Source: a virus. Taken from it: 64,000 nt of DNA. The stretch spans positions 1-64,000 of IMG/VR virus record IMGVR_UViG_3300037346_000419. The stretch is one strand, 5' to 3'. Under the pieces are notes generated by a model. That model did no database searches. It was not told the DNA's origin and saw nothing but the letters and a program-made list of their open reading frames with translations. Positions 17,008 to 55,927 of this stretch are shown here, piece by piece (positions within the stretch are counted from its first letter, which is position 1; each line of letters begins with the position of its first letter). The position numbers were made by a program, and so were the translations under genes.

Positions 17008-19659
17008 TTAACCACATTTTGAATGCCCACACTCTTTACAAGTAGAACATCCTTCTTCAAAAACTACACTTCCTTTTGTTTTACAATTATCACATTCCAA
17101 AGTTGAAGTTTCTCCTTTTGGAATATATTTTTTTAGTACTCTAGCAAGAGATTTAGAAAAAGATGTAATATCTCCCTCTCCTTTATTCAATTGCTCTACA
17201 ATATATTTGTTATTAACTCCATGTCTTAAACTAATACTAGTTAATCTCAATAATAAAGCTTGTTCATTTGTTAAATTACAAGTAATATCATGAAATATAT
17301 CATTTTGTTTGAAAAAATAACTATTACTAGTTTTTTTATAAATGATACCAGGACCTGAAAATTTACCTTCTGATTCATCTAAGAAAACTTCATAAGGTTT
17401 ATTATTTAATAATCCTACAATCCATTTATAGACATGTCCTTGTGAGTGGCTTATAAATGCTTCTCCTTCTAATTCTCTAGGTCTTTTTATAGCATCATGT
17501 TCTTTAAAAGCAACTTCATCTTTAATATCAGTATTAACTAATACACCAGTTCTACAGCCATCTCTATAAACAGTTACACCTTTAAGTCCCATTTCCCAAG
17601 ATTTCATATAGATATTTGCTACTTCTTCTTTAGTTACGGTATTTGGTAGATTAATTGTGGAGCTTATTGCACTAGTAGTATATTTTTGTAAAATACTTTG
17701 CATTTTAACTCTTTTTGTCCAATCAATATCATTTGCTGTGCTACCATACCAAGGTGACACTTTGAAATATAGTTCTAAAGAATCCTTAGTTAAAGCTTTT
17801 ACATAAAGGTAAGCATTTTCCTTAGTTTTATTAGTACCTTTTAATAAAGGATTAACATCAAAAGCTACTTCATTTTGAATTTGTATAATCATCCAATCTT
17901 TAAATTTAGGATGTAAAACAGAATATTCTGTCCAAGAATCTTTATTTTGGTCAATAAAATCTATTCTAACTCCTTCTTCTCCTGGATTAACTTTCTTTCT
18001 CCTAGTATAAAAAGGCATAAATAAAGGCTCACAACCAGATGTTGTTTGAGTCATAATTGAAGTTGTTCCAGCAGGTGCAATTGTATTCCAATTTACATTT
18101 CTTCTACCATATTTCATCATTCTTAACTTTTGCTCTGGAAATTCTTCTATAAGCATTTGATAAAAATCATTTGCACCTTGAGTTTCTTTATCAGAAAAAA
18201 TATTGGTGAATTCTAAATTTTTATCCCAACCTTTAAAAGGTCCTCTAAGAATAGCTAAATCAATACTACAATCAAGTTCTGCCTTCATTTTTGTATGCAT
18301 TACAAGTTCAACAGTATCTAAAGCTACTTCTGAATCAAATTTTAAATTTAAAGCAGCTAACATATCTCCTAAAGCAGTTATACCACATCCAACTCTTCTA
18401 CCTGATTCTGCAATATCTTTAACATTTAACCATAGAGTTTTTTCAATAGCTTTTTCTTCTTCAGGTAAATTATCAGATTCTATTTTTAATAGAATTCTTT
18501 CAATATACTCAATTTCTAAATCAACTAAATTATCTCCTTGTCTCATCATTTCATAAGTGATTTTATATAATAAATCATAGTCAATTACAGCTTCTTCAGT
18601 AAATGGGTTTTGTACCATATTAAATAGATTTAATAAAATTAATCTACAAGTATCATAAACTGCCATTGGCTGTTCTCCACAAGCATTTGTTCCATCAATA
18701 AAATATTTAGAATACACAGAGGAAGGGTCGTAATTAATAACTCTATCCCAGAAAAATAGTCCTGGTTCTGCATTTTCCCAAGCATTTTGTACAATTGCAT
18801 CAAAATACTCTTTTGCTCTGATTTTTTTAGCATATATTTTAAAATCTAATGAAGAATCTTGTATTATTGTCAGTGTATTATACTCTAAATCCTCTCTTTG
18901 ACATTCTACAATTTCAGAATTTATATCACAAGGAAATCTAAGAATATAATCCTCATCATTTTTTACAGCTTCAAAAAATTTATCTCTTGTTTTTACAGAA
19001 ATATTAGCTCCTGTAATCATAGTTCTATCAATTTTTGAATTGATAAAATCTAAACTGTCAGGATGATTAATATCAATATCAAGAAGACAAGCTCCTCTTC
19101 TACCATCTTGAGCTACTTCTCTTGTTGAATTAGAATATCTTGACATAAATGATACTGGACCTGTTGAAGTACTTGAAGCATTTTTAACTTCAATTCCTTT
19201 TGGTCTAATATTAGAAATACCTAATCCATAACCACATCCTCTTTTAGCTGCTGATATCAGCATTGTGTCAGTGTACATTATACTAGAATAAGAATCTTTA
19301 GGTGGTGGTAATCTAAGGCAATTACTAAGGCTTCTATAACCTTCTTTATAACCTAAAGATGCCATAATTCTACCTTGTGGTACAATGTATTTAAAATCTT
19401 TAAACATATCAAAGATTTTTTCTTCTGTTAAAGGTATTCTTTGTAAAGCATAATCAGACATAATTTCTAAGTTAAAAGAAGCATCTTCATAATAATTTTT
19501 TTCTTTTTCAATATACTTAGATTCTACTTTAGCAAATTCTTTTGCTAGTCTTCTGTGCATGTCATTAGGTGTTATATCATTTTCTTGTGCATATTTATTA
19601 AGCCACACATCTGAAGCTAATTCATCATTATTAAAATATTCTAATAATTCTTTATTCAT
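17008..19659 (-). CDS. nrdJ: Class II (adenosylcobalamin-dependent) ribonucleotide reductase
   Basis: PQGRIM, SLSNC, TNACGEQ, TIAPAGT, C-terminal CxxC...CxxCGHSKCG. No beta-subunit gene nearby. Confidence 0.9.
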   Translation of the reverse strand: MNKELLEYFNNDELASDVWLNKYAQENDITPNDMHRRLAKEFAKVESKYIEKEKNYYEDASFNLEIMSDYALQRIPLTEEKIFDMFKDFKYIVPQGRIMASLGYKEGYRSLSNCLRLPPPKDSYSSIMYTDTMLISAAKRGCGYGLGISNIRPKGIEVKNASSTSTGPVSFMSRYSNSTREVAQDGRRGACLLDIDINHPDSLDFINSKIDRTMITGANISVKTRDKFFEAVKNDEDYILRFPCDINSEIVECQREDLEYNTLTIIQDSSLDFKIYAKKIRAKEYFDAIVQNAWENAEPGLFFWDRVINYDPSSVYSKYFIDGTNACGEQPMAVYDTCRLILLNLFNMVQNPFTEEAVIDYDLLYKITYEMMRQGDNLVDLEIEYIERILLKIESDNLPEEEKAIEKTLWLNVKDIAESGRRVGCGITALGDMLAALNLKFDSEVALDTVELVMHTKMKAELDCSIDLAILRGPFKGWDKNLEFTNIFSDKETQGANDFYQMLIEEFPEQKLRMMKYGRRNVNWNTIAPAGTTSIMTQTTSGCEPLFMPFYTRRKKVNPGEEGVRIDFIDQNKDSWTEYSVLHPKFKDWMIIQIQNEVAFDVNPLLKGTNKTKENAYLYVKALTKDSLELYFKVSPWYGSTANDIDWTKRVKMQSILQKYTTSAISSTINLPNTVTKEEVANIYMKSWEMGLKGVTVYRDGCRTGVLVNTDIKDEVAFKEHDAIKRPRELEGEAFISHSQGHVYKWIVGLLNNKPYEVFLDESEGKFSGPGIIYKKTSNSYFFKQNDIFHDITCNLTNEQALLLRLTSISLRHGVNNKYIVEQLNKGEGDITSFSKSLARVLKKYIPKGETSTLECDNCKTKGSVVFEEGCSTCKECGHSKCG

Positions 19660-19957
19660 GAGTCCCTAAAATTTCATCATAATTAATAAGACTATATGTA
19701 TGAATCTCTTTTTCAGAAATTTTATCATGTTTTATGATATTACTACCTGAATAAGAGCTTATAAAAATTTTGTCTCCTTCTTTTACACCATTTTGTGGAC
19801 ATTCATTTCCTAAATTTAAAACAGTCCTTGTAATTTCAAACAAGTCTTCATCTGTTTCTTTTACATTATCCAATAGAATAATGTCTTTCTTTTTTTTAAG
19901 TGCTATAGTTTTAATTAGCACATTTTTTCCTATCGCTTTCATTTTGTGAACTTGCAA
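19652..19957 (-). CDS. GroES/Cpn10-like co-chaperonin
   Basis: MKAIGKNVLIK...IILLD...VLNLG...VKEGDKI...INYDEILG fits the GroES pattern. TAACTTTG box just upstream. Confidence 0.7.
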   Translation of the reverse strand: MQVHKMKAIGKNVLIKTIALKKKKDIILLDNVKETDEDLFEITRTVLNLGNECPQNGVKEGDKIFISSYSGSNIIKHDKISEKEIHTYSLINYDEILGTHE

Positions 19958-19970
19958 AGTTAATATAACT

Positions 19971-21997
19971 TTACATATTTAAAAAATACAATTCATGTTT
20001 TGCTCTAGTTCTTGCAACATACTTTAAGTTTTGCTCTTGTTGTAGTTGCTCTTTACTTTTAGCAAATTTTGAAGGTATTAAATTCTCATTTAGTATATAA
20101 ACTACATCAGATTCCAAACCTTTTGATTTATGAATTGTACATAGCATTATACCATTTTCTTTTTCTTCAAATAGAGATTTTAATTTCTCTAATAAAACAC
20201 TAACTAAATCATAGTCTCCACAAAAATGCTTATATAATAAGGTAAAATTATTAAGATTCTCTTTAAAAACATAAAATTTAATTTTTCCTTCTTCAGAATA
20301 ATCTTTTTCTAATTCTTCTGTTCTATAAGTCATTTCAATAAAAGCTTGAGTAACTGTGTTTGTGGAATAAGCTTTTAAAAATCTAATTAAAGAATTTAAA
20401 ATGTCTTCTCCTTTTAAATATACATTTTTATCTTCAGCTAACAACTGAAAATAAAGCTCTATTAAAGGATTTGTATTCCTGCAAATTACCATTGCTCCAT
20501 TTTGTATCAATTTATAGTCAGTTATAGTCTTTACAATACCTTCTGAAGAATTAAAAGGTGTCATTACATCATAGACTTCATTTGCTTTCTTTATAATTGA
20601 GTCATCGCATCTGTAACAAATATCTAAAGGTAATTGTTTTACATTTGGTTTAGATAAAAATAAATCAAAAGAAGAGGTTGAAGCCCCAGAAAAACCATAA
20701 ATAGCTTGATTTTTATCTCCAACACAAATAAATCTTTTAACTGATTGTTCAATTAACTTATCTACAATTTTATGTTGACAAATATTCAAATCCTGACATT
20801 CCGTTTTTTTGTATAGTTTTAAAACATGATAAAGATTAATTATTATCATTATACTATACCTTATACTTTCATATAAGACTAGACTATATCTTAAAAATTT
20901 CTAATTTTACATTTTTAATATTTAGATTTTTTATTGTATGAGAATTTATCCAATTTCTTTTGTAAGTATTCTCCCTTTTAGAATCATATATATGCTGAGA
21001 TAATCTTGCTTTTAAACTTGTGCAAGTTACCCCTACATACCTTACTTCTAATGTTTCTGGATTTTTTAAAACATATATTAAAAACTCTCTTTGTTTAATA
21101 TTTTTTATTCTCTACATGTTAAATCTTGTGTTATGCAAAAACAGTAATTTTTCTCCCCGTTTCCAAATAAAATAATCAATTTTAAATGTACGTATTTCTA
21201 CTAGTCGTTGAACCTTACCCATTTTAAAAGGTCTTGGCTGCTGATTGCCTATTTGACATCTCAATTATTTTTAACATTCACACTTATCTTTTCAGATTAT
21301 GTTGTAGTTAATTGAGCTTTAAGGTATTCCAGCAATTAAAGGAGTTTTAAGTGAACTAAATTTAATCCACCATTAGATAATGAGGATATATTGGAATTTG
21401 AAGGCTTTTTACAACTGGTAAATAAATCATATCATTAAAATCTATTAAAACTAAGTTTGATTCATAACTAGCATTTCTTAATTCTAAAAATCTTTGCCAT
21501 AAAACTTTTAAATCAGGTGTGATAACTAAACTTTTATCCATAGTTATAAAACAATCTCTAATAGATTCTACATCATCAATTAAAAATAATCTAGATATAT
21601 CATTCATATCCATTAAATCATAACTCATTTTAAGTTTATCTTTCCAAACTAGCTTTTTAAATATTCTTTTATTTTGAAATTGTAATTTTTTAATTAAACT
21701 AAAATTTTTACCATTATCTATTTTTATATTCTTATAACTATTTCTTATTGCACTTAAACCTAAACTATGAATTGTCATAGCTTTTCCTTGAGTTAAATTT
21801 TTACTTTCTATTTTATTTTGAATTTCTTCTTTGATTGATTTATTAAAAGCTAAAAAAAGAGTTTTTTCTTGACAATGTTCTAATAACAGTAACAAAGTGG
21901 TAGTTTTACTACCACCTGCTACAGCATTTATTAAAATATTACAATCTTCATTATTCCAAACATCTAAAATGTTTTGTTGTTTTTCACTTAGAATCAT
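19971..21997 (-). CDS. UvrD/Rep-like SF1 helicase, split by a group I intron (exons 21365-21997 and 19971-20801, 487 aa spliced)
   Basis: Walker A-like AVAGGSKTTT. Splicing restores MVD|ECQD. Also VGDKNQAIYGF, YRC, TIHKSKGLE and YVARTRAK. Confidence 0.9.
20802..21364 (-). mobile_element. Group I self-splicing intron (563 nt) in the helicase gene
   Basis: Core elements AATTGCTGGAA, AATCAGCAG, GTTCAACGACTA and AAGATATAGTCT. Exon ends in U and intron ends in G. P1 pairing GGUGGAU/GUUCACU. Confidence 0.92.
20884..21117 (-). pseudogene. Truncated GIY-YIG homing endonuclease remnant inside the intron
   Basis: Frame reads ATG TAG then RIKNIKQREFLIYVLKNPETLEVRYVGVTCTSLKARLSQH...KRNWI...FKI*. GIY-YIG-type motifs present, with an immediate stop and no C-terminal part. 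Confidence 0.75.
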
Positions 21998-25161: not shown

Positions 25162-25989
25162 TTATATATTCATACATATTTCATAGGTTAAAGAATTATA
25201 ATAAACTTCAGACTTCTCTGTTCTTGATTTCAAAAATATAATATCTTCTGGCATATTATTTTCTAATTTGTAAGTTTTAATTCTTTGTTGAAGTGTTAGG
25301 TTTTTAATTGCTTCTTCTGAAGTGTAAAAAGCTTCTAACTCATAAGCACTTAAATTTCTAGTAGCTAATTCTAGTAATTCAGGAGGAGTTGGCATTAACA
25401 CATAATCTAAAAAAGCATCTAAAGCATCATATAAATGACAATAAGATATTAATTGCCATTTGTAAACACTATCAATTCCTGTTTTGTTCTTAAAACTTTT
25501 CCAAGTTTCAGGAACTTTACAATCCCTAATTATATCATGATACTTAATATCACACTCACCAGTTAAAAAACCTTTTGAAATTCTTTCAGTATTTTTAATA
25601 TATTCAGTATTATTTAATTGACTTATTATAGATATTGCTCCATCTTCACAATATCTGCCTTTCTGTAAACTAAAAGTACCTTCTAATAAACTTGCATCAA
25701 AGAATTTATAATTATTTTCTAACCACAGTTCTTGTAAGTAAGTTTTTGCCCCATCTGGTAAAGGGTCTTCTACACTATTTGTATAATCTTTTTGTAATTT
25801 AATAACATCTCTAGCAACTAACATTATACCATTAGTTTCAGAATAATCAATTAATTTATCTGGATTATAATCAGTTTTTAATTTTTCTTGGACTTTATTT
25901 TTCAATATATCCGTAGCTTTCTCTAATTCCATTTTATCAAAAAATGGCCTATTAGTACAAACTCTATGTGAACTTGAAGCTCTAATCAT
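25162..25989 (-). CDS. YqaJ/lambda-exonuclease-like PD-(D/E)xK nuclease
   Basis: KGxxxE, LTGECDI, RDCK and YKWQLISY. Confidence 0.75.
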   Translation of the reverse strand: MIRASSSHRVCTNRPFFDKMELEKATDILKNKVQEKLKTDYNPDKLIDYSETNGIMLVARDVIKLQKDYTNSVEDPLPDGAKTYLQELWLENNYKFFDASLLEGTFSLQKGRYCEDGAISIISQLNNTEYIKNTERISKGFLTGECDIKYHDIIRDCKVPETWKSFKNKTGIDSVYKWQLISYCHLYDALDAFLDYVLMPTPPELLELATRNLSAYELEAFYTSEEAIKNLTLQQRIKTYKLENNMPEDIIFLKSRTEKSEVYYNSLTYEICMNI

Positions 25990-26377
25990 TTTTGTTTTTT
26001 ATATCTAAGATTTTTTTAAAATCTTCAAAACTCATATACACTAAATCATCTAACTCTTGTCTTTTATTGCCTTGACCTACTGTTTTTCTATGAATTACTA
26101 TTGTAGGTAATTCGTGTTCTATTTTTGTAGGTGGCATAAGTTCTTTTATTTGATTTTTTGTGTATTCTATAACATTTTTAATATTTAAACCTCTGTCATA
26201 CCCCACTTTTACTTGAACATTAAATGGTAAATTTGTTAAATCTATACCACAATTGTCATGTAATCTGCTTTCTAACCTAGAAGTTTGACAGAAAATGTAG
26301 CCAAGTTCTCTAAATAACTTGGCATACAATCTTTCTCCATTACTTCCTTTTCTTTTATTTGTTTTTCCTTGTCCCAT
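25982..26377 (-). CDS. Hjc-like Holliday junction resolvase / PD-(D/E)xK nuclease
   Basis: KRKGSNGER...LGY...GIDL...VQVK. Confidence 0.7.
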   Translation of the reverse strand: MGQGKTNKRKGSNGERLYAKLFRELGYIFCQTSRLESRLHDNCGIDLTNLPFNVQVKVGYDRGLNIKNVIEYTKNQIKELMPPTKIEHELPTIVIHRKTVGQGNKRQELDDLVYMSFEDFKKILDIKNKND

Positions 26378-26380
26378 GTT

Positions 26381-27274
26381 TTAAAAAGGTAAATCTATTG
26401 GATTAATACTATTAGTACTGCTAGAATCAATAGGGTCAATTCCAGCTATATATGCTGGATGAGGTAGATTTATATTATTAATATCATCAGAAAGATTATT
26501 AGATATTATATCTGAATTAAAAAAGCTATTTATTGCATCACTATTTAAATTCATTTGAAATAACGCTTTTTTAATTTCTTTAAGTTTACTTCTTTCTGTG
26601 TCTCGAAATGACAAAACAACTAAATTTTCTTCTTTACAAAAATCAGATAATATATCATTTTCAACTATATTGTTTAATTCTGTTATACTATTAAAATTTT
26701 CTTCAAAACCTTTTGAAAACAACTCTTCATCTATACTTTTTGTACTTTTAAATTGTACTGAAATACCTTTTTCATAACAACTATTTATTAAGTCTTTTTC
26801 TACTTTTTTATAAAAACTTTTATATATAGGATTTAATAAAAACTCAGTTGCTACAAGTAATTTAAAATATTTATATATGGGGACATCATTATCAAAAATT
26901 TGGTTTCTTTCATAATTTTTACAACACAAAATTAATAAGATGTTTTCTTTATCATCTAAAATAGAATAGTGACCTGAAGAAATTTCAACATCTTTCCCTT
27001 GAACTTTAAATCCATATTTTCGTATTCTATCTTTATATTTAAAGTTTTTTAAAAATTCACTATAAGTTTTTGTTTTATAAAATCTAATACTTAAATGTTT
27101 ATAATAAAATTTAATATCAGTTAAAACAGGAAGAAAAACTGAGATGTTAAAAGGGCTTATATACATAGTATCATCACAAATTGTATAATAAGGCATATAT
27201 TCTCCCAAACTTTTCACTCCTATTTTTAAAATATCAGGGTGTGCTTGAGCATCATAAATTTTGTCTATAATCAT
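26381..27274 (-). CDS. Hypothetical protein coupled to the E1-like gene
   Basis: 297 aa, 4-nt ATGA overlap with the ThiF gene, no recognisable motif. Confidence 0.6.
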   Translation of the reverse strand: MIIDKIYDAQAHPDILKIGVKSLGEYMPYYTICDDTMYISPFNISVFLPVLTDIKFYYKHLSIRFYKTKTYSEFLKNFKYKDRIRKYGFKVQGKDVEISSGHYSILDDKENILLILCCKNYERNQIFDNDVPIYKYFKLLVATEFLLNPIYKSFYKKVEKDLINSCYEKGISVQFKSTKSIDEELFSKGFEENFNSITELNNIVENDILSDFCKEENLVVLSFRDTERSKLKEIKKALFQMNLNSDAINSFFNSDIISNNLSDDINNINLPHPAYIAGIDPIDSSSTNSINPIDLPF

Positions 27275-27957
27275 GATATAACATTTGTATATGTGACTGG
27301 AATAAAAAACTCATAAAAAAATGGTATATCCCTAACTTTTTCTCTTTCATGAATATTTGTTAAATGATTTGTAAAAAAAGCTGTCATTAAAGAACCTATC
27401 ATTGCTGCACAATGACTTGTCTGTTTTAATGTGCATGGTGCATCTTCTACTTCATCATCATCAAAAAGATATTTTTCATACTCTTCAATTTTATCTGGAG
27501 TCACACAAAATATTTGTAATTGTTCTAATTCCAATCTACCATCTATGAAAATAGGAGTTACAGGACAATTAGGAATACTTTTTTTCCAAACTTCAAACAT
27601 ATCTTTTCTAGCTTTCATATTATCAAAAGCAGAAAACATAAAATAATGTGTAGGAGAATTTCTATCAATTTTTTCATTAAAAATATGAGGTGTTTTACCA
27701 CAAAATTCATAAATAATATTACTAATAGCATTTACTTTTGGTATGCCTAAATCTTTTACTTTAAACATTTGACCTCCCATATTATGTTCTTCTATTAAAT
27801 CATCATCATAAATAACACAATTATTTCCTATTCTACTAAGAAAAAAACTTAACCATGTGCCAATACCTCCTGCACCCCCTATCATTACTGTTTCAGGATT
27901 TTCAGAAAACCATAAAGCATCTTTAAATCTATTATACTGCGCTTCCATATTCTTCAA
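27271..27957 (-). CDS. E1/ThiF-family adenylyltransferase
   Basis: GAGGIG, DDDLIEEHNMGGQ, K...AFDNMKAR, IDGR and candidate catalytic Cys in DAPCTLKQT. No Zn-binding CxxC pairs. Confidence 0.9.
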   Translation of the reverse strand: MKNMEAQYNRFKDALWFSENPETVMIGGAGGIGTWLSFFLSRIGNNCVIYDDDLIEEHNMGGQMFKVKDLGIPKVNAISNIIYEFCGKTPHIFNEKIDRNSPTHYFMFSAFDNMKARKDMFEVWKKSIPNCPVTPIFIDGRLELEQLQIFCVTPDKIEEYEKYLFDDDEVEDAPCTLKQTSHCAAMIGSLMTAFFTNHLTNIHEREKVRDIPFFYEFFIPVTYTNVIS

Positions 27958-29182
27958 ATTTTTGTAAGAAAAACTTTATTGCTAATTTTATTTTACTAAC
28001 AACTTTATATTCTATTTCTAACTCTTCAAGTTCTTCAACTATACGATTTGTAATGTAAATAAAATTTTCATCGTCTTCTTCTTCTGTAAACATATTTTTA
28101 TATAAAGGTACAAAATTCTCTAATATTTGTCTACAAATTTCTTCTATTTTTACTGCTCCAATTGTCACATTTAATTCTAAATCTTCTAAAACATCATCAA
28201 TAGTTTTTGTATCATCTTCTTTAGTATTAGTATAATTTAATAAAGCATAAATAAAATCTTGTATTAAATCTAATTCATCTTCTTCTAAAAAAGTATCATT
28301 ATCAATTTCTTCAAAATCTATGTCATCAACAAATTCTTGAAATAAATCAATTTGTTTTTTATTTGTAGTGACAACTTTTGTTAAAGGACTATTAGGAATT
28401 ATAGGATTATTTGGGATAATGTTTGCAAAACCTTTAATAGGATTTCTATTTTGAGGAGGAAAAGTTTGAACATAAATAGGTTTTTCAGCTTTCTTTATAA
28501 TAGCTTCTACTCCTTCTTTAAATTCTTGATTAACTATTATTTCTTCTTGTTCAGATATAATGTCACAATTATAAATAAATAATTTTTCTTTTTTAAATTT
28601 TAAATCTTCTTTAGATATTGTATATTTTTTACCATTTTCATCTAAAGAAATATATGGTGTTTTTGTAATATCTTTTTGTATAGCTCCTCTAAAAGCAACT
28701 TTAGCTTCAAAATCCATATAGTTATTTACTATTAAAGAAAGATAAAAATTGTGAGAATCTGAATTATCATTTAATTCACTCATATCTGTTCCAGAGAAAA
28801 AAACATTCATTGTATTGTGGCTATGTATATGCCCAATTTTCCAATTCATTCTTTCTTCATCTTTCATCATATAATCTACAAATCTATTATCAAATTCGTA
28901 TTCTGTAAAAGCTTGTGTGCCTTTATCCATTGGTAAAATATCTCTTATAATAAGAAGCATATTTTCGGGTTTTCTTATAGAGCCTATTATTTCATAAAAT
29001 AATATTCCTGACCACTCTACCTTTGCTATTTTTTTACACAGGTACTTGATTTTGAATAATATTTCTTTGGATATTTCTAATTTTATTCTCTTTTCTAATT
29101 GCTCTATTGACAACGACTTGTTTATATAAATGTTGTTCGAGGGCATTACTTGCGGATTTTGTGTATTTTGGTAATAATTCAT
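27932..29182 (-). CDS. JAB/JAMM (MPN+) metalloprotease with acidic C-terminal region
   Basis: EWSG...GHIHSHNTMNVFFSGTD matches E-xn-HSH-x7-S-x2-D. Confidence 0.9.
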   Translation of the reverse strand: MNYYQNTQNPQVMPSNNIYINKSLSIEQLEKRIKLEISKEILFKIKYLCKKIAKVEWSGILFYEIIGSIRKPENMLLIIRDILPMDKGTQAFTEYEFDNRFVDYMMKDEERMNWKIGHIHSHNTMNVFFSGTDMSELNDNSDSHNFYLSLIVNNYMDFEAKVAFRGAIQKDITKTPYISLDENGKKYTISKEDLKFKKEKLFIYNCDIISEQEEIIVNQEFKEGVEAIIKKAEKPIYVQTFPPQNRNPIKGFANIIPNNPIIPNSPLTKVVTTNKKQIDLFQEFVDDIDFEEIDNDTFLEEDELDLIQDFIYALLNYTNTKEDDTKTIDDVLEDLELNVTIGAVKIEEICRQILENFVPLYKNMFTEEEDDENFIYITNRIVEELEELEIEYKVVSKIKLAIKFFLQKFEEYGSAV

Positions 29183-30275
29183 ATTTTACTTTTATTTCTT
29201 CTTTTGTTTCTTGTTTTTTTTCATAAACTTTAAAATCTATAATTTTACTTCTAAAAATTATAGAAGGAATTAAATTTTGATTTTTCAAATCTTTATTTAT
29301 TTCTTTTACGTTTTCTTTATAATCATCTTTATTAAATTGATAGTATATATCTTCTATTTTTGTTACAATAAGATTTTTTATATTGTCATAATCAAACTTT
29401 TTAATTATATTTATTATTGTGTTTTTAAAATTATCATTTATTATAAATTTAAGACTTCTATTTTGTACTATAACACGTAAATTTTTTATATCATTCTCAT
29501 TTATATTTTTAATTAATTGAATATTTACTATATTAAACATATTTTTAGCATCAGTTCTATCTATTGATATACTACTACTTTCTGCATTTGTTATAACATC
29601 TCTCATTTTTATATGGGGGCCACCTTCTAAGGATTCCCAAGATAAATAGTTATCTAAAGTAATAATAAATAATTCAAATGCTTCAGGAGTACATTCATTT
29701 CTATTTATAGATATTATATCAGAAATTTCACTTTCTCCATAACAAAAACTTGAACTATAAAAATTTTTATTATATTTATAACTCATTGTATTAGTATGAG
29801 AGTGTCTATAAGCATTGTGAAATTCTTGTTTATTAACTGATAATCTAATACCTTTAAAATCTTTAAAAAAGATGGATGAAGTAAATTTATGTATAGGTAA
29901 AACTATTAATAAATCTTTTATAAGATGTTCTTCTTCTACACTATTTTTAATTGTGATAGAAGGATATAATATAAAAATATTTATTTGTATAGAATTTATT
30001 AAAGTATTATCTTGCTTATTAGAAAAATTATCTATAATACTTAAATTAATATCCCAATTATCTTTATGATGTGCATTTAAAATTGGAGTAATTAAATTTA
30101 TAAAATTAGAAAATCTTATTTTATTTCTAACCCCTATACCACATACATAATCTTTTTGTATTAAAGTTTTTAAAAAATTTATGTCTCTTGATTTTCCTGA
30201 TTTGTTCCAATTATTGCATAATTTAATAATTGTATTTTCATAAGTAGTTCCTATTGTGTTTATATTTAACTGCAT
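29034..30275 (-). CDS. Putative E2 (UBC-fold)-like conjugating enzyme
   Basis: YRHSH...SFCYG (His then Cys, resembling the E2 HPN...C site), followed by helix FELFIITLDNYLSWES. Lies between the Ubl-like and JAB genes. Confidence 0.6.
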   Translation of the reverse strand: MQLNINTIGTTYENTIIKLCNNWNKSGKSRDINFLKTLIQKDYVCGIGVRNKIRFSNFINLITPILNAHHKDNWDINLSIIDNFSNKQDNTLINSIQINIFILYPSITIKNSVEEEHLIKDLLIVLPIHKFTSSIFFKDFKGIRLSVNKQEFHNAYRHSHTNTMSYKYNKNFYSSSFCYGESEISDIISINRNECTPEAFELFIITLDNYLSWESLEGGPHIKMRDVITNAESSSISIDRTDAKNMFNIVNIQLIKNINENDIKNLRVIVQNRSLKFIINDNFKNTIINIIKKFDYDNIKNLIVTKIEDIYYQFNKDDYKENVKEINKDLKNQNLIPSIIFRSKIIDFKVYEKKQETKEEIKVKYELLPKYTKSASNALEQHLYKQVVVNRAIRKENKIRNIQRNIIQNQVPV

Positions 30276-30285
30276 AATTTTTTAA

Positions 30286-30303
30286 AGGGGTGTTTCCACC
30301 CCT
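30286..30303 (-). terminator. Stem-loop between Ubl-like and E2-like genes (weak terminator or mRNA stabiliser)
   Basis: AGGGGTG-GAAA-CACCCCT on the - strand followed by a short U run. Confidence 0.55.
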
Positions 30304-30318
30304 ATCTAATTTGTTTTT

Positions 30319-30978
30319 TTAAAAACCTTTATTAATTTCTGCTAATTCTCTAGTTAATCTTTCAGTTTCTTCTCTGTCATCAATAGCTGCTTGGGCTGAC
30401 TCAGAATTACTATAAGTTTCAATTAAATTTAACACTCTGTTATATTTTCTTGAATCTACTAAGTCTTCCCAAGCTGTTGTCAAATCATTTTTATCAATTA
30501 CTAAAACAACTTCTGCTAGATTATTCTCAACAGAAAGAATAGCTAAAGAAGATTGAGAAGGACTAATTTGTTCTGAAACTGCTTCTGGCTCTGGAGTTTG
30601 AGTTAAATTGTTAAAATAGTTTTTTAAATCTAAAGTTGAACATTGTGTCCAACTAACTTTACAGTTGAATTTAGCCACTCCAATTTTATCAGCAGGACTT
30701 AGTTGATTTCTTAAATCATTATAATTCATATTGTTATAATCTACTCCAGATTTAGTTTTAATAGGACTGATAAACAAAGTAAAAGCTGTAGTAGGCAATA
30801 TTGCTATACTACTTTCTAAACTTGTTCTATTTACACTTTCTAAAGCTTTGAATTGATTCATATCAAATCCTTTATTTTCTACAACACTTTTCAATTCACC
30901 CCAAGTTGTTGCTGATGATTGAATTTTAATTTTTTCACCTTTTGTGGTGAATATGGTGATTTCTCTTTCGTTACTCAT
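30319..30978 (-). CDS. Putative ubiquitin-like (beta-grasp) precursor protein
   Basis: Residues 1-78 show a beta-beta-alpha-beta...beta pattern (EITIFT / KIKIQS / TWGELKSVVE / FKALE / FTLFIS) ending KTKSG78, followed by a ~140-aa extension. Confidence 0.6.
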   Translation of the reverse strand: MSNEREITIFTTKGEKIKIQSSATTWGELKSVVENKGFDMNQFKALESVNRTSLESSIAILPTTAFTLFISPIKTKSGVDYNNMNYNDLRNQLSPADKIGVAKFNCKVSWTQCSTLDLKNYFNNLTQTPEPEAVSEQISPSQSSLAILSVENNLAEVVLVIDKNDLTTAWEDLVDSRKYNRVLNLIETYSNSESAQAAIDDREETERLTRELAEINKGF

Positions 30979-31017: not shown

Positions 31018-32052
31018 TTATAGAAGATTTATATTTTTATCTCTTAAAAAATCTATTAAATTTTGTTTTCCTTTATTTTCTATTAAATCTGATGCATCTG
31101 AAATTTTATCTTTTAATAAATTTTCATTTAACCATATTTTTTCTATATTATTAATACCTAATGATATTAATAAATCATATAGTTTTATAGAAGCTTTTAT
31201 TCCAGCTTTATCATTATCAAAAAAAATAATAATTTTATTAAAAGAATTTAATAAATTTTTTAATATTTCCTTATCAGGAAACATTCCTTCATTTTGAAAC
31301 CAAATTACATTTAAATTTAGATTTTTTAATACTCTATAATCTTTATAAGATTTAGTAATTATTATATTATCTGAATTATTATCTATGAAATTTATTCCCC
31401 CAATATCATTATTATCACAATTAGTTATAAATTTTTTAACTTTTTGCTCAGGTCTATAGATTTTCTTTTTATTATCTTTAAAATCTGTATAGCAATAACA
31501 TAAATCGATGGGTCTAACAGTTATATCTCCTTTTCTTGTATTCAATAGTTTGAATTTTTGAATTGGAAAAACTTTATCATCTATTAAATTTTGTTTAGTA
31601 ATTTCATAAGGAGTCCAATAAAGACCATCTATTTTACTGAAATTTCTTGTTGCAATTAGAATCTTAAAATCTTTTTTAATAACATTGACTTTTTTGACTT
31701 TTTTTACAACTGGTTTTATAACAAAATTTTTATTTTTTATGATATTTTTATTTATAAAAGCTAAAGTTTCATAAAAATTCTTTAAATTGTATTTTAGTTT
31801 GATTGCATCAAAACAATCAATTTTTAGATTATCTGCATAATCAACAAATCTTAGGGTGTTAGCATCTAATTCAAACCAACACCCTGGATTTGTATCATCT
31901 CTAAAAGGAGATATGATATATTCAAATTCTATAGGTTCAAAACCAAATACATAAGCAAATATATCTTGTTCAGATACTTTATTAAGTATAGATTCTTTAC
32001 TAATAAAACCTTTAACTTCTATATTATCTGTTATTTTATCATAAATAGACAT
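31018..32052 (-). CDS. DNA primase (Toprim)
   Basis: SPFRDDTNPGC N-terminal region, IITKSYKD, FFDNDKAG and SDASD. Confidence 0.8.
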   Translation of the reverse strand: MSIYDKITDNIEVKGFISKESILNKVSEQDIFAYVFGFEPIEFEYIISPFRDDTNPGCWFELDANTLRFVDYADNLKIDCFDAIKLKYNLKNFYETLAFINKNIIKNKNFVIKPVVKKVKKVNVIKKDFKILIATRNFSKIDGLYWTPYEITKQNLIDDKVFPIQKFKLLNTRKGDITVRPIDLCYCYTDFKDNKKKIYRPEQKVKKFITNCDNNDIGGINFIDNNSDNIIITKSYKDYRVLKNLNLNVIWFQNEGMFPDKEILKNLLNSFNKIIIFFDNDKAGIKASIKLYDLLISLGINNIEKIWLNENLLKDKISDASDLIENKGKQNLIDFLRDKNINLL

Positions 32053-53479: not shown

Positions 53480-55927
53480 ATGAATGAAAAGAAAAATCCA
53501 AAAAATCAAATGCTTTCTACAAAAGAGAAAAATGCAGATGACAAAAGGTGGTATAAAGATTTTGCAGATGACTTAGATAGTCAACATAACTCTTTATTAT
53601 ATAGTGAAAACAATAGAAATAGTAGAATTTCAGAATTAAAAAGAATGAAAGTCAATTATGATTTATTTAATGACATATTAGATATTTCAGAATTAGCTTA
53701 TGTGTGTCAACCTTTTGGAGCTAGTGTAGGAGAACTTCCTGCAAGCATGGTAAATAGAGATATATCTTCTGGAAAGATTAAAGCTATCCTCGGTATGGAA
53801 AGTAAAAGACCTTTTGATTGGAAAGTTGTTGCAGTTAATCGAGAAGCCACAACAAGAAAAGAAGGAATTTATTTTTCTAAAATAAGAGAGTCTGTTGTAA
53901 ATGATATTATGCAACCTATTAGAGTAAGAGTAGAACAAGAATCTGAAGAACAAAATAGAGGTAAAGAATTAACTCAAGAAGAAAAAATTAAAATTCAAAA
54001 AGAGATTGAAGAGAGAATAAAATCTGAAACACCTGAAGAAGCAAAAAAGTATATGGAAAGGGAACATCAAGACCCTGCTGAAGTGTTATATCATCAATTA
54101 CTTGAATATTTAATTGAAAAATGTCAATTAAAAAGAAAATTTAATAAAGGTTTTAAACATTTAAATCTAAGTGCATCAGAAATTTATTATGTGGGAATAT
54201 TAAATAAAGAACCTGAAGCTTGGGTTGTTAATCCTATGAGATTTTCTTGTGACCCCAATTCTGAAAACGATTTTATTGAAGAAGGAGAGTGGGCTGTATG
54301 TGAATATAAAATGTCTCCTTCTATTATTATAAAATATTTAGGTGATGAATTATCTGAAGATGAAATAAAAACTATCTATGAATCTTGGCATGGAGATACT
54401 GCAATTAACTATAAAGATTTTTTTAGTATAGATGAAGGATATAATAATTACGATAATAATAATAATATATCTGTATTACACTGTGTTAAAAAATCTTTAA
54501 GAGAAGTAGCATTTTTAACTTACTTAGATGAAAATGATGAAGAGCAAGTAGTGCAAGTTAATGAAGAGTATGAGTTAAATGCTGATGCAGGAGATATTAG
54601 TCTAGAATATGAATGGCTACCTGAAGTTTATGAAGTTTGGAAAATAAAAACTTATGAACCAATTTATGTAAAAGCTAGACCTATACCTGGACAACTAAGA
54701 GATATGGATAATTTATATCATTGTCCTTTACCTTATTATGGTGCAAAAATAGATGCTCTAAACTCTAAAGCTACAGCATTAATGGATAGATTAAGAAACT
54801 ATCAATATTTTTATAATATTATTAGTTTTAGAGTAGAGCTGTTGATAGCGTCTGATAAAGGTAAAAAAGTATTAATGAATATAAATACTATACCAGATTC
54901 AGCAGGAATTAATATAAAACAGTGGCAATACTTTATGGAGTCTTCTCCTTATATGTGGTATGACCCAAGTGAAGAAGGTAATTCAGGAGGATATACAGAT
55001 GCAAGCACTGTAGCTAAAGTAATAGATTTATCTTTAATTTCAGACATACAAAAATACATAGACATACTAGAACATATTAGAATTAGTGCAGGAAAAAGTG
55101 TAGGTATAACAGATGCAGTAGAGGGGCAAATAGGGCCAAATGAAGCTGCATCAAATGCTAGACAAAACTTAACACAAACCTCTCATATATTAGAGCCTTA
55201 CTTTGAGTTGCATAATCATGTTAAAAAGAATGTGATGCAAGCTTTAATAGAAATGGCTAAAATTACTTATGCAGAACACAAACCTAAAAAATTAACTTAT
55301 TTATTAGATGATATGTCTTTGAGAACTTTAGAATTAGACATAGATTTACTAAGTGAAACTTCAATTGGTTTATTTGTTTCTAATTCTACTAAAGCTGAAG
55401 ATACTAGACAATTAATGATACAGTTAGCACATGCAGCTTTACAAACTCAAAAAATTGAATTATCTGATGTTATATCCACTATTAATCAAAGTAGTGCTAC
55501 TGAAGCTGAAGAAGTTTTAAAGGTTGCAGAACAAAACAGAAAAGAGTTTGAAATGTCTATGAGTCAACAAAATCAAAAAGCTGCTGCTGAAGAAGCTGAA
55601 AGAGAAAGACAAAGAGATAGAGAAAAACATGAAGAAAATTTAGAAAAAATTAAATTAAAAGGAGAAATTGATTTAAATAAAGAGATAGTAAAATCTTCTT
55701 TAATAGGAGCATCTTTTAATCCTGACCAAGATGCAGATAATGATGGTGTGAATGATTTTTTAGAAATAGCTAGAGATGGTCTAAATGCAGAAGTTAAAAG
55801 AGAAAATGTAAAACTTCAAAAAGATAAATTTGAACATCAAAAAGTTGTAGATGATAAAAAATTAAAACAAGTAGATAAAAAGTTAAAAATAGATGCTAAA
55901 AAAGCAGAACAAAAAAATAATAGTTAA
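53480..55927 (+). CDS. Portal protein
   Basis: 815 aa directly after terL, with a C-terminal coiled coil and DADNDGVND motif. Matches crAss-like gene order. Confidence 0.85.
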   Translation: MNEKKNPKNQMLSTKEKNADDKRWYKDFADDLDSQHNSLLYSENNRNSRISELKRMKVNYDLFNDILDISELAYVCQPFGASVGELPASMVNRDISSGKIKAILGMESKRPFDWKVVAVNREATTRKEGIYFSKIRESVVNDIMQPIRVRVEQESEEQNRGKELTQEEKIKIQKEIEERIKSETPEEAKKYMEREHQDPAEVLYHQLLEYLIEKCQLKRKFNKGFKHLNLSASEIYYVGILNKEPEAWVVNPMRFSCDPNSENDFIEEGEWAVCEYKMSPSIIIKYLGDELSEDEIKTIYESWHGDTAINYKDFFSIDEGYNNYDNNNNISVLHCVKKSLREVAFLTYLDENDEEQVVQVNEEYELNADAGDISLEYEWLPEVYEVWKIKTYEPIYVKARPIPGQLRDMDNLYHCPLPYYGAKIDALNSKATALMDRLRNYQYFYNIISFRVELLIASDKGKKVLMNINTIPDSAGINIKQWQYFMESSPYMWYDPSEEGNSGGYTDASTVAKVIDLSLISDIQKYIDILEHIRISAGKSVGITDAVEGQIGPNEAASNARQNLTQTSHILEPYFELHNHVKKNVMQALIEMAKITYAEHKPKKLTYLLDDMSLRTLELDIDLLSETSIGLFVSNSTKAEDTRQLMIQLAHAALQTQKIELSDVISTINQSSATEAEEVLKVAEQNRKEFEMSMSQQNQKAAAEEAERERQRDREKHEENLEKIKLKGEIDLNKEIVKSSLIGASFNPDQDADNDGVNDFLEIARDGLNAEVKRENVKLQKDKFEHQKVVDDKKLKQVDKKLKIDAKKAEQKNNS

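Follow-up and report, generated by a model that had tools for sequence, protein, structure and literature searches.

What is a set of five genes, four of them resembling the parts of a ubiquitin-type conjugation pathway, doing between the primase and the resolvase of a crAss-like phage? The question was raised by a stretch of viral DNA of 64,000 nucleotides (nt), positions 1 to 64,000 of the IMG/VR record IMGVR_UViG_3300037346_000419 (hereafter the window), in which five co-directional open reading frames (ORFs) occupy positions 26381–30978 of the minus strand, between the genes for a primase and a RusA-like resolvase. A reading made from the sequence alone had described them as a complete operon encoding a ubiquitin-like protein (Ubl) precursor, a conjugating enzyme (E2), a JAB peptidase, an activating enzyme (E1) and a partner of unknown function. 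The layout was as that reading described it, with a gap of 43 nt between the first two ORFs and overlaps of 149, 26 and 4 nt among the last four. We conclude that the cassette is probably a phage-encoded system for conjugating a ubiquitin-like protein, transcribed with the replication genes. Support for such a conjugation cycle comes from the folds predicted for the Ubl and for the E2 candidate, the motifs of the JAB and the E1, a glycine that is always masked, cysteines that are invariant in both the E1 and the E2 candidate, and the strict co-inheritance of the genes.

The arrangement was found far beyond this genome. Loci were collected from IMG/VR through the E1 (33 loci) and through the 413-residue E2 candidate (80 loci) and scanned with profiles of the five families, and 82 of them were counted as distinct by the sequence of the E2 candidate. 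The order Ubl-E2-JAB-E1, with or without the fifth gene, occurred in 72 of the 82; in the remaining ten, one or more cassette genes were absent from the contig, a count made without regard to contig ends. The 413-residue family had 3,284 representatives at 50% identity in a library of 1.8 billion proteins, 3,107 of them at E ≤ 1e-10. Because the gene order recurs in so many loci and this family has so many representatives, the recurrence of the cassette lies far beyond chance; judged by this comparison, the locus is genuine and conserved, and it is a large one. The sequence-only reading had guessed that it might be conserved in crAss-like phages, and this was borne out. In crAss001 the five genes follow the primase in the same order, as gp79, gp78, gp77, gp76 and gp75, and the order is also kept in DAC15 and in Flavobacterium phage FpV4. 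Public records label the cassette genes ‘thiamine biosynthesis protein’, ‘metalloprotease domain protein’ or ‘hypothetical protein’; in crAss001, gp77 is annotated ‘metalloprotease domain’ and gp76 ‘thiamine biosynthesis protein ThiF’.

The five cassette proteins

The first protein, of 219 residues, carries the sequence ...SPIKTKSG at residues 71–78. AlphaFold2, run with a 25-sequence alignment, modelled residues 1–72 as strand-strand-helix-strand-strand, with a predicted local distance difference test score (pLDDT) of 93–97. A Foldseek search of the PDB with this model returned ubiquitin, SUMO, ISG15 and UBX matches, 47 of them at E ≤ 1e-3, with values of E 2e-4, a template modelling (TM) score by target of ∼0.7 and a root-mean-square deviation (rmsd) of ∼2.2 Å. 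The VIA search, which is independent of Foldseek, gave Z scores that reached 9.9, and 58 chains scored Z ≥ 8. Ubiquitin, SUMO, FAT10 and UBX outscored MoaD (5mpo_B, Z 8.4) in these fold searches. A PDB sequence-profile search with the Ubl family yielded noise only, and the members of its alignment had only scattered chance matches in Pfam and NCBIfam, with no PRTRC family among them. That residues 1–78 adopt a ubiquitin-type β-grasp fold is strongly supported by the structure predictions.

The strongest argument for a Ubl modifier is a comparative one, drawn from the end of the β-grasp in 79 unique relatives from the IMG/VR loci. A Gly closed the domain in all 79 and was never the last residue of the protein. 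It was preceded by Ser (65), Ala (11), Gly (2) or Asn (1), and a Lys two residues before it was near-universal. Only 1–4 residues followed the Gly in 13 of the 79 relatives (e.g., ...KQTKSG-E and ...KMKSG-K), while the other 66 had tails of 51–267 residues, which belonged to at least six unrelated sequence families plus singletons. The largest tail family (34 of the 66) includes the window protein and has a confident small helical domain in the model; the extension in the window was modelled as a three-helix domain (residues 80–128), a disordered linker and an acidic helical tail. Two tail members had weak matches to the SAP domain (E 0.05). An invariant Gly that is always masked, together with an exchangeable tail, is the pattern of a processed modifier precursor, and the extension is predicted to be removed by the JAB peptidase. 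Type II BilA has the same masked-Gly pattern, and BilC cuts it after the conserved Gly (Chambers et al., PMC10557695).

The presumed processing enzyme, the JAB protein of 416 residues, has an intact JAMM motif (E56, H120-x-H122 and S130-x-x-D133), conserved in at least 90% of 30 relatives. Its matches to Pfam Prok-JAB (13.3 bits, cut-off 25) and to NCBIfam PRTRC_A (14.2 bits, cut-off 101.8) were weak, and its C-terminal 250 residues are acidic, helical and poorly conserved. The frame of the JAB gene overlaps that of the E2 candidate by 149 nt in the window (29034–29182). The median overlap over 79 distinct loci was 77 nt, or 62 nt if counted from the first JAB residue aligning to the JAB profile, and both reading frames look coding within it. 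The JAB of Flavobacterium phages Fpv1, Fpv2, Fpv20, FpV21 and the FPSV series was found in two pieces ∼1 kb apart, with an annotated endonuclease between the pieces (e.g., NC_031931.1:65896-67621), which suggests an intron or a homing-endonuclease insertion inside the gene. Gaps of 1–2 kb separated JAB and E1 in some IMG/VR loci.

The E1, of 228 residues, matched Pfam ThiF (PF00899) above the cut-off (4.2e-10, 39.6 bits against 28.1). A PDB search with the single sequence gave no match, and one with the family profile matched MccB, UBA5, SAE2, PaaA, TcdA and ThiF, as well as UBA6, UBA3, MoeB, Cap2, Uba4 and Uba1. The best of these was MccB (2.6e-10), covering the Rossmann part only (residues 20–92). 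In NCBIfam the best match was the ThiS adenylyltransferase model PRK08644 (1e-11, far under the cut-off). Residues invariant in 24 diverse E1s were R10, at the Arg-finger position, G27-G28-x-G30-G31-I32-G33, D51, D53, N59, Q63, K74, D112-N113-M114, R117, D139-G140-R141 and C175, and all residues of the nucleotide site but one were kept. The protein consists of one adenylation domain with C175 in a short loop. In an alignment this Cys falls on the one that PRTRC ThiF proteins of Bacteroidota conserve, in the context P-x-C-[ST]-[LM], and it is a candidate catalytic cysteine. By analogy with ThiF and MoeB, the phage E1 presumably acts as a homodimer.

The E2 candidate was modelled with a long helix (residues 49–70), four long antiparallel strands within residues 74–148, and a loop with Y156, H158, S159 and H160, which leads to F177-C178-Y179-G180, 18 residues past H160. 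Helices 183–193 and 197–211 follow, and then a W-E-S-x-E-G-x-P loop (residues 213–220). S159, H160, C178, E214 and S215 were invariant in 136 sequences that are ∼17–29% identical to the window protein. The secondary structure of the model puts H160 and C178 between strand 141–148 and helix 183–193. The two residues are spaced 18 residues apart; in classical E2s the His–Cys spacing is about 8–10 residues.

Fold searches with this model pointed, at moderate scores, to the UBC fold. The top VIA match was the UEV domain of TSG101 (Z 6.4, 136 residues, rmsd 3.7 Å), and further matches were the Vps23 UEV, RWD domains, some thirty eukaryotic E2s (Z 4.4–5.1) and Cap2 (Z 4.5). Chain 9eav_D of a Citrobacter BubCD-BubB-BubA entry, which we take to be the E2 part of the Bub complex, matched at Z 5.1. 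By title, 33 of the best 50 VIA matches were E2, UEV, RWD, Cap2 or Bub entries, at values where the method itself cautions that Z < 8 may mean merely a common arrangement. Foldseek against the PDB was weak but coherent, with TSG101 and Vps23 UEV and Cap2 at E 0.08–0.9, and a fold search of BFVD returned uncharacterised crAss-like proteins only. Members of the family alignment matched no E2, UEV, RWD, Prok-E2 or PRTRC family in Pfam and NCBIfam and had only scattered chance matches there, and the C-terminal 180 residues had no clear match. Since the fold searches agree in direction, not in strength, we grade the UBC fold of the modelled protein as likely and its function as an E2 only as probable.

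The fifth protein, of 297 residues, has a fast-evolving core of ∼210 residues, a low-complexity linker and an acidic tip that ends in PIDLPF. A homologous-protein search with it returned 3 proteins only. An iterated profile placed it directly after the E1 in 24 ORFs, including crAss001 gp75, and other loci had at this position an ORF of 214–330 residues that the profile did not match. P28 was the sole invariant residue of the family and no polar, catalytic-looking set was conserved, which favours an adaptor, scaffold or substrate over an enzyme. ESM Atlas models of two fifth-gene proteins were poor (pLDDT 0.31 and 0.37) and had no feature neighbours, and hhalign found no match between the fifth protein and the E2 candidate. 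The tips were tallied in 33 unique relatives from the profile. Nearly all of the 20 relatives of at least 257 residues had an acidic C-terminal stretch, and the 13 shorter ones had no acidic tail. An acidic and aromatic end was seen in ten relatives, in addition to the window protein, with four of the ten ending in [LIVM]-P-F as in the window; seven relatives ended in ...E-L-I-D-D-[TE]-[EG] or a close variant. In our view the tip (26381–26440 in the window) resembles the C-terminal docking tip of bacterial single-stranded DNA-binding protein (SSB), a likeness that we treat as a lead, not a result.

Most of what the sequence-only reading had said of these proteins withstood the comparison. The KTKSG end, the H158-S159-H160...F177-C178-Y179-G180 segment, the JAMM motif, GGAGGIG and the distal C175 are present as it had quoted them, and the codons that it named for the two cysteines, 29742–29744 in the E2 candidate and 27433–27435 in the E1, are correct. 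Its calls of a JAB peptidase and of a ThiF-type E1 were upheld by the conserved zinc-site residues and by the Pfam match and the invariant C175, respectively. The Ubl and E2 assignments, which it had called the weaker ones, both gained. It had staked the first on residues 1–78, which do model as a β-grasp and close with Gly in every relative, and the second on a UBC fold and a conserved Cys; the fold searches support an E2 at the fold level, and His160 and Cys178 did not vary in the 136 sequences. The word ‘complete’ went somewhat too far, since no E3 could be recognised and the fifth protein is unassigned. Its further proposals, that the Ubl would be conjugated to host defence or replication proteins or that the JAB would act on host conjugates, are inferences.

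Table 1. Positions of the cassette genes, their domains and the two flanking genes in the window.
Feature	Positions	Strand or place	Basis
DNA primase	31018–32052	upstream of cassette	PHROG DNA primase 1e-81, Toprim
Ubl precursor gene, 219 residues	30319–30978	minus	PHROG 15560 (unknown function) 2.5e-19; AlphaFold2 mean pLDDT 82
β-grasp domain, residues 1–78, end K74-T-K76-S77-G78	30745–30978	minus	model and conservation; Gly78 codon 30745–30747
C-terminal extension after Gly78, 141 residues	30319–30744	minus	AlphaFold2 model
E2-candidate gene, 413 residues	29034–30275	minus	AlphaFold2 pLDDT 89.3, predicted TM score (pTM) 0.83 (136-sequence alignment)
UBC-like domain, residues ∼28–232	29580–30194	minus	VIA fold matches; H160 codon 29796–29798, C178 codon 29742–29744
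JAB/JAMM metallopeptidase gene, 416 residues	27932–29182	minus	PADLOC JAB 2.2e-7 over residues 27–147
JAB catalytic domain, residues ∼27–160	28703–29104	minus	JAMM motif and PADLOC match
Minimal ThiF-type E1 gene, 228 residues	27271–27957	minus	TTG start, ATG at codon 4; Pfam ThiF
Fifth gene, 297 residues	26381–27274	minus	overlaps E1 stop by 4 nt; PHROG 15446 (unknown function) 5.6e-14
RusA-like resolvase	25982–26377	downstream of cassette	PHROG 3e-8

The phage, its genome and its hosts

The window belongs to a crAss-like phage. Its source record is an IMG/VR virus sequence of 81,326 bp with an estimated completeness of 86%; the G+C content of the window is about 22–31%, and two giant ORFs encode proteins of 3,781 and 1,538 residues. 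The nearest deposited relatives, judged by the E1, were the Flavobacterium psychrophilum phages FpV4 and Fpv1-3 (69% identity), followed at ∼32–36% by Bacteroides crAss001, the PhiCrAssBcn phages, DAC15/17 and uncultured ‘cr’ phages. No near-identical DNA was found in the phage collection searched. Searching sequencing runs with the window DNA gave one match, a salt lake metagenome DNA run that is probably the source sample of the phage, and no RNA run.

The cassette lies within a minus-strand replication module with genes for ribonucleotide reductase, a split UvrD-type helicase, a dNMP kinase, an exonuclease, the RusA-like resolvase, the primase, a DnaB-type helicase, a family A DNA polymerase and a dUTPase. 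The sequence-only reading had remarked that no thiamine or molybdopterin genes were present to explain the E1. Indeed, 20 neighbouring ORFs scanned against Pfam included no thiamine or molybdopterin gene and none for sulfur transfer; rhodaneses, cysteine desulfurases and PP-loop enzymes did not appear in this set, nor did CD-NTase or effector genes. The UvrD-type helicase is encoded by two adjacent minus-strand ORFs ∼500 nt apart, 19971–20849 for the C-terminal part and 21362–21997 for the N-terminal part, an arrangement that would fit interruption of the gene by an inserted element. A 101-residue ORF (19652–19957), placed between the helicase and ribonucleotide reductase genes, had a marginal match to Cpn10 (GroES; E 2e-4, 21.6 bits, cut-off 21.1).

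A scan of genome contigs with the E1 alignment revealed a complete five-gene cassette in Chitinophaga sp. YR573 (NZ_FOJF01000001.1:3748682-3761353), on a 4.83 Mb chromosome contig of a cultured member of the Bacteroidota. It comprises a standalone Ubl of 80 residues, an E2 candidate of 390, a JAB of 311, an E1 of 248 and a fifth protein of 211 residues. A homologue of the 815-residue ORF of the window (53480–55927) lies ∼50 kb from the cassette on the same contig (E 3e-25), and the locus looks like a crAss-like element, integrated or co-assembled, in a culturable host. Cassette contigs were also filed in metagenome-assembled genomes labelled Promethearchaeia, Thermotogaceae, Fusobacteriaceae and Sediminibacterium, most probably because contigs of crAss-like phages were binned into unrelated genomes, so that their host labels are not trustworthy.

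Conservation of the cassette extends over a large branch of the crAss-like phages, including some of the most abundant human gut viruses, and the cassette is present in the cultured pairs crAss001/Bacteroides intestinalis, DAC15/B. thetaiotaomicron and FpV4/Flavobacterium psychrophilum, as well as in the cultured Chitinophaga genome. In the open-access literature searched, no paper mentioned both crAss-like phages and ThiF; searches on crAss with JAB, ubiquitin or gp77 gave nothing relevant, and no paper describing the cassette was found. A 2023 review of the Crassvirales does not mention ubiquitin, thiamine or metalloprotease.

A proposed conjugation pathway and its alternatives

The pathway that we infer, in each of its chemical steps as in its targets and its benefit to the phage, would begin with the JAMM peptidase cutting the 219-residue precursor directly after Gly78, giving a 78-residue modifier and a released extension. 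A dimer of the minimal ThiF-type E1 would then adenylate Gly78 with ATP and take the modifier on Cys175 as a thioester. From there the modifier would pass to Cys178 of the UBC-fold protein, helped by His160 and the Glu214/Ser215 loop, and this protein would transfer it to lysines of the target, either through its own C-terminal domain of 180 residues or through the fifth protein as an adaptor. The JAMM peptidase may also reverse the tag. Our best guess for the role is that replication or repair proteins, of the phage or of the host, would be modified early in infection, or that a host defence would be neutralised.

Several observations weigh against such a pathway. The E2 assignment was built on a predicted structure with middling Z scores (4.4–6.4), and no sequence profile in Pfam, NCBIfam, PADLOC or the PDB recognises the 413-residue protein. 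Neither an E3 nor a target was recognisable. The E1 is without a separate catalytic-cysteine domain and without an E2-binding domain. Moreover, all 24 phage E1s have a Gly (Gly62, codon 27772–27774 in the window) in N-x-G-G-Q, at the position of the Arg of N-L-x-R-Q in MccB, ThiF, MoeB, other E1 and PRTRC ThiF proteins; with Gly in place of this Arg, adenylation may be altered.

The pathway can also be extended into a bolder proposal, that the cassette represents a third prokaryotic ubiquitination lineage, with a modifier that also delivers interchangeable cargo, released by the JAB, and with the SSB-like tip of the fifth protein steering the E2 to host proteins that dock on SSB. It would then include a new E2 family and the smallest E1 known in such a cascade, used during genome replication of the Crassvirales and their relatives, and the phage would rewire or disable the host replication and repair enzymes that normally dock on SSB. 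Taken as a whole, this proposal seems rather unlikely to us.

The exchangeable tails also invite an explanation without any conjugation, in which the β-grasp is a folding or solubility module from which the JAB frees a variable C-terminal cargo, as in ubiquitin–ribosomal-protein fusions or in TAPI and TAPK of lambda, while the E1 and the Cys protein have some other role. The long tails of several unrelated families, found in 66 of 79 relatives, and the confident helical domain of the largest family would suit it, as would the proposal of Iyer et al. that a JAB processes a Ubl-fused tail-assembly protein in lambdoid phages. However, the 13 relatives without cargo still keep the E2 candidate, the JAB and the E1; the invariant part of the precursor is the Ubl domain with its Gly, and the variable part is the tail. 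An always-adjacent E1 with adenylation residues and an invariant Cys would moreover be left without a function, and we regard release of a cargo alone as unlikely. Somewhat less probable still is a sulfur-carrier pathway, in which the Ubl, adenylated by the E1, would be converted to a thiocarboxylate, as are ThiS, MoaD, CysO and TtuB, and provide sulfur for the modification of nucleotides, tRNA or DNA during phage replication. The JAB would then merely unmask the Gly, as Mec+ does for CysO, and the 413-residue protein would be a sulfurtransferase or a modification enzyme. The sulfur carriers ThiS and MoaD end in Gly-Gly, whereas the residue before the Gly of the phage Ubl is Gly in only 2 of 79 relatives and Ser in 65. 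The top fold matches of the Ubl were ubiquitin, SUMO, FAT10 and UBX, not ThiS or MoaD, the 20 neighbours scanned included no sulfur-transfer enzyme, and the co-inherited Cys protein matches the UBC fold. What speaks for a sulfur carrier is the ThiS adenylyltransferase model as the best NCBIfam match of the E1, though far below its cut-off, the presence of MoaD (5mpo_B) among the Ubl fold matches, the position of the locus among genes of nucleotide metabolism and replication, and the description of sets of E1, Ubl and JAB that act without conjugation (Iyer et al., 2006, PMC1779556).

Two further alternatives accept conjugation, or its reversal, but change its object. Gly78 could be joined to something other than lysine during replication, such as a nucleotide, a DNA end, a lipid, or a Ser or Thr as an ester. 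The fixed position beside the primase would fit, and the best PDB match of the E1 is MccB, the maker of a peptide–nucleotide conjugate; yet this match covers only the Rossmann part, and the peptide-clamp domain of MccB is absent. The unusual Gly at N-L-x-R-Q hints at altered chemistry and Bub shows that bacterial relatives can use chemistry other than thioesters (PMC11601596), but a Cys that never varies, in the E1 as in the E2 candidate, suits an ordinary thioester relay and nothing points to a specific non-protein acceptor, which makes this explanation very improbable. We rate lowest the possibility that the locus serves counter-defence by deconjugation, with the JAB stripping host Bil tags or the CD-NTase conjugates of type II CBASS and the Ubl acting as a decoy or inhibitor. 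PADLOC JAB models do recognise the phage JAB best (2.2e-7), and host Bil systems tag phage structural proteins (PMC11601596). Nevertheless, the similarity of the JAB is generic to the JAMM fold, and deconjugation would leave unexplained the masked Gly and the strict co-inheritance of the E1 and of a Cys-bearing UBC-fold protein. Conjugation of the Ubl to protein targets is consistent with these features together, and is the reading that we prefer.

Relation to known conjugation systems

To our knowledge, experimental demonstrations of ubiquitin-type conjugation in prokaryotes come from bacterial anti-phage systems (CBASS Cap2, Bil and Bub), and comparable gene sets have to date been studied only in cells and as part of such defence. 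A full conjugation set carried by a virus would, if confirmed, reverse this defence-centred picture, and with it would come a new E2 family and a minimal form of E1, both useful for understanding the evolution of the cascade. The sequence-only reading had likened the cassette to Bil, CBASS and PRTRC. In the way it would work the likeness stands, but membership in any of them does not, as defining features of each were not found in it.

Type II CBASS shares the E1, E2 and JAB folds with the phage cassette; Cap2 was among the fold matches of the E2 candidate (Z 4.5), and the E1-E2 and JAB models of PADLOC were the only matches of the cassette in the defence libraries. In CBASS, however, there is no Ubl, the CD-NTase itself being conjugated, and Cap2 is a fused E2-E1. 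The precursors of eukaryotic ubiquitin, which are fused to ribosomal proteins or carry an extra C-terminal residue and need a deubiquitinase for maturation, recall the phage Ubl in that the modifier is always masked past its reactive Gly, and in that short caps and whole fusions both occur. The sequences are unrelated, ubiquitin has R-G-G where the phage protein has a single Gly in K-x-K-S-G, and the phage tails are diverse. Among phages, TAPI and TAPK of lambda and T1 also combine a β-grasp protein, in which a conserved Gly is followed by another domain, with an adjacent JAB, and TAPK (JAB and NlpC) was proposed to cut the Ubl TAPI at the Gly (Iyer et al., 2006, PMC1779556). Those genes, however, belong to the tail module and are without E1 or E2, whereas the cassette lies in the replication module and has both.

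The Bub system (6E/DUF6527) has a Ubl, an E2, an E1 and a peptidase, and cutting of its precursor gives the functional Ubl, as would be the case here. It forms oxyesters, its E1 is without a catalytic Cys, its Ubl-E2 and JAB-E1 are fusions, and it further encodes the DUF6527 serine protease BubE (Ye et al., PMC11601596). In contrast, the phage proteins are separate and both the E1 and the E2 candidate have an invariant Cys; none of the five cassette proteins matched DUF6527 in Pfam.

The PRTRC cassette, taken here to be the operon type 6d described by Iyer et al. (2006), is closer in composition. It too has five parts: besides a small Ubl ending in Gly, a JAB and a ThiF-type E1 of a single domain, these are a Cys-bearing protein that shows E2-like features and an additional protein that evolves fast. 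It too is found on mobile elements, those of Bacteroidota included. It was present in 8 of 301 sampled Bacteroidota genomes, in the order of a 72-residue Ubl, a protein of ∼390 residues, PRTRC_B (∼240 residues) and ThiF (∼265 residues). These sizes and their order recall the phage cassette, but profile homology was found for the E1 only, for which the profiles matched at 98.6% probability and the E1 Cys aligned. Comparisons by hhalign of the other four phage proteins with Bacteroidota PRTRC proteins gave probabilities below 1% in the pairings run, a subset in which the PRTRC side was the Ubl, the 390-residue protein and PRTRC_B. The NCBIfam PRTRC models (TIGR03735-03738) were far below their cut-offs or absent, with 32.8 bits against 144.75 for PRTRC_ThiF, and PRTRC_B and PRTRC_C had no match in 26 members of the E2-candidate family and 25 of the Ubl family. 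The PRTRC Ubl stops exactly at ...G-T-K-G without an extension, and PRTRC ThiF keeps the Arg of N-x-G-R-Q where the phage E1 has Gly. In operon type 6d the conserved His of the E2-like protein comes after the Cys, and the JAB has an extra N-terminal domain (PMC1779556).

The closest parallel in function is Bil, which has the same four functions in the same order, Ubl-E2-JAB-E1 as in BilABCD, and no E3. As in Type II Bil, the phage Ubl is a single β-grasp with a conserved Gly and extra residues for the JAB to remove, and it is closer to ubiquitin and SUMO than to ThiS or MoaD. Identification of the E2 candidate with the ‘CEHH’ protein of Type II Bil was considered and rejected, the order in the phage protein being H158/H160–C178–E214/S215 with no invariant His after the Cys. 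In BilB the order is C...E.H....H, with the His downstream, whereas in the phage protein the His precedes the Cys and a W-E-S-x-E-G-x-P loop is present. BilD has IAD and AAD domains, a Zn site and a CYS domain that is helical and mobile, where the phage E1, with its 228 residues, has one adenylation domain (BilD architecture and the CEHH order of BilB from PMC10557695; Bil is also summarised in PMC11601596). The extension past the Gly reaches up to 9 residues in BilA and up to 267 in the phage proteins, the Ubl and the E2 candidate had no sequence-level match in Bil, and a fifth conserved gene belongs to the phage cassette. Moreover, Bil works in bacteria against phages, while the cassette is carried by a phage. 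On these comparisons of sequence and gene order, the cassette is best placed outside Bil, Bub, PRTRC and CBASS, as a phage-borne variant of its own among the bacterial ubiquitination-like systems.

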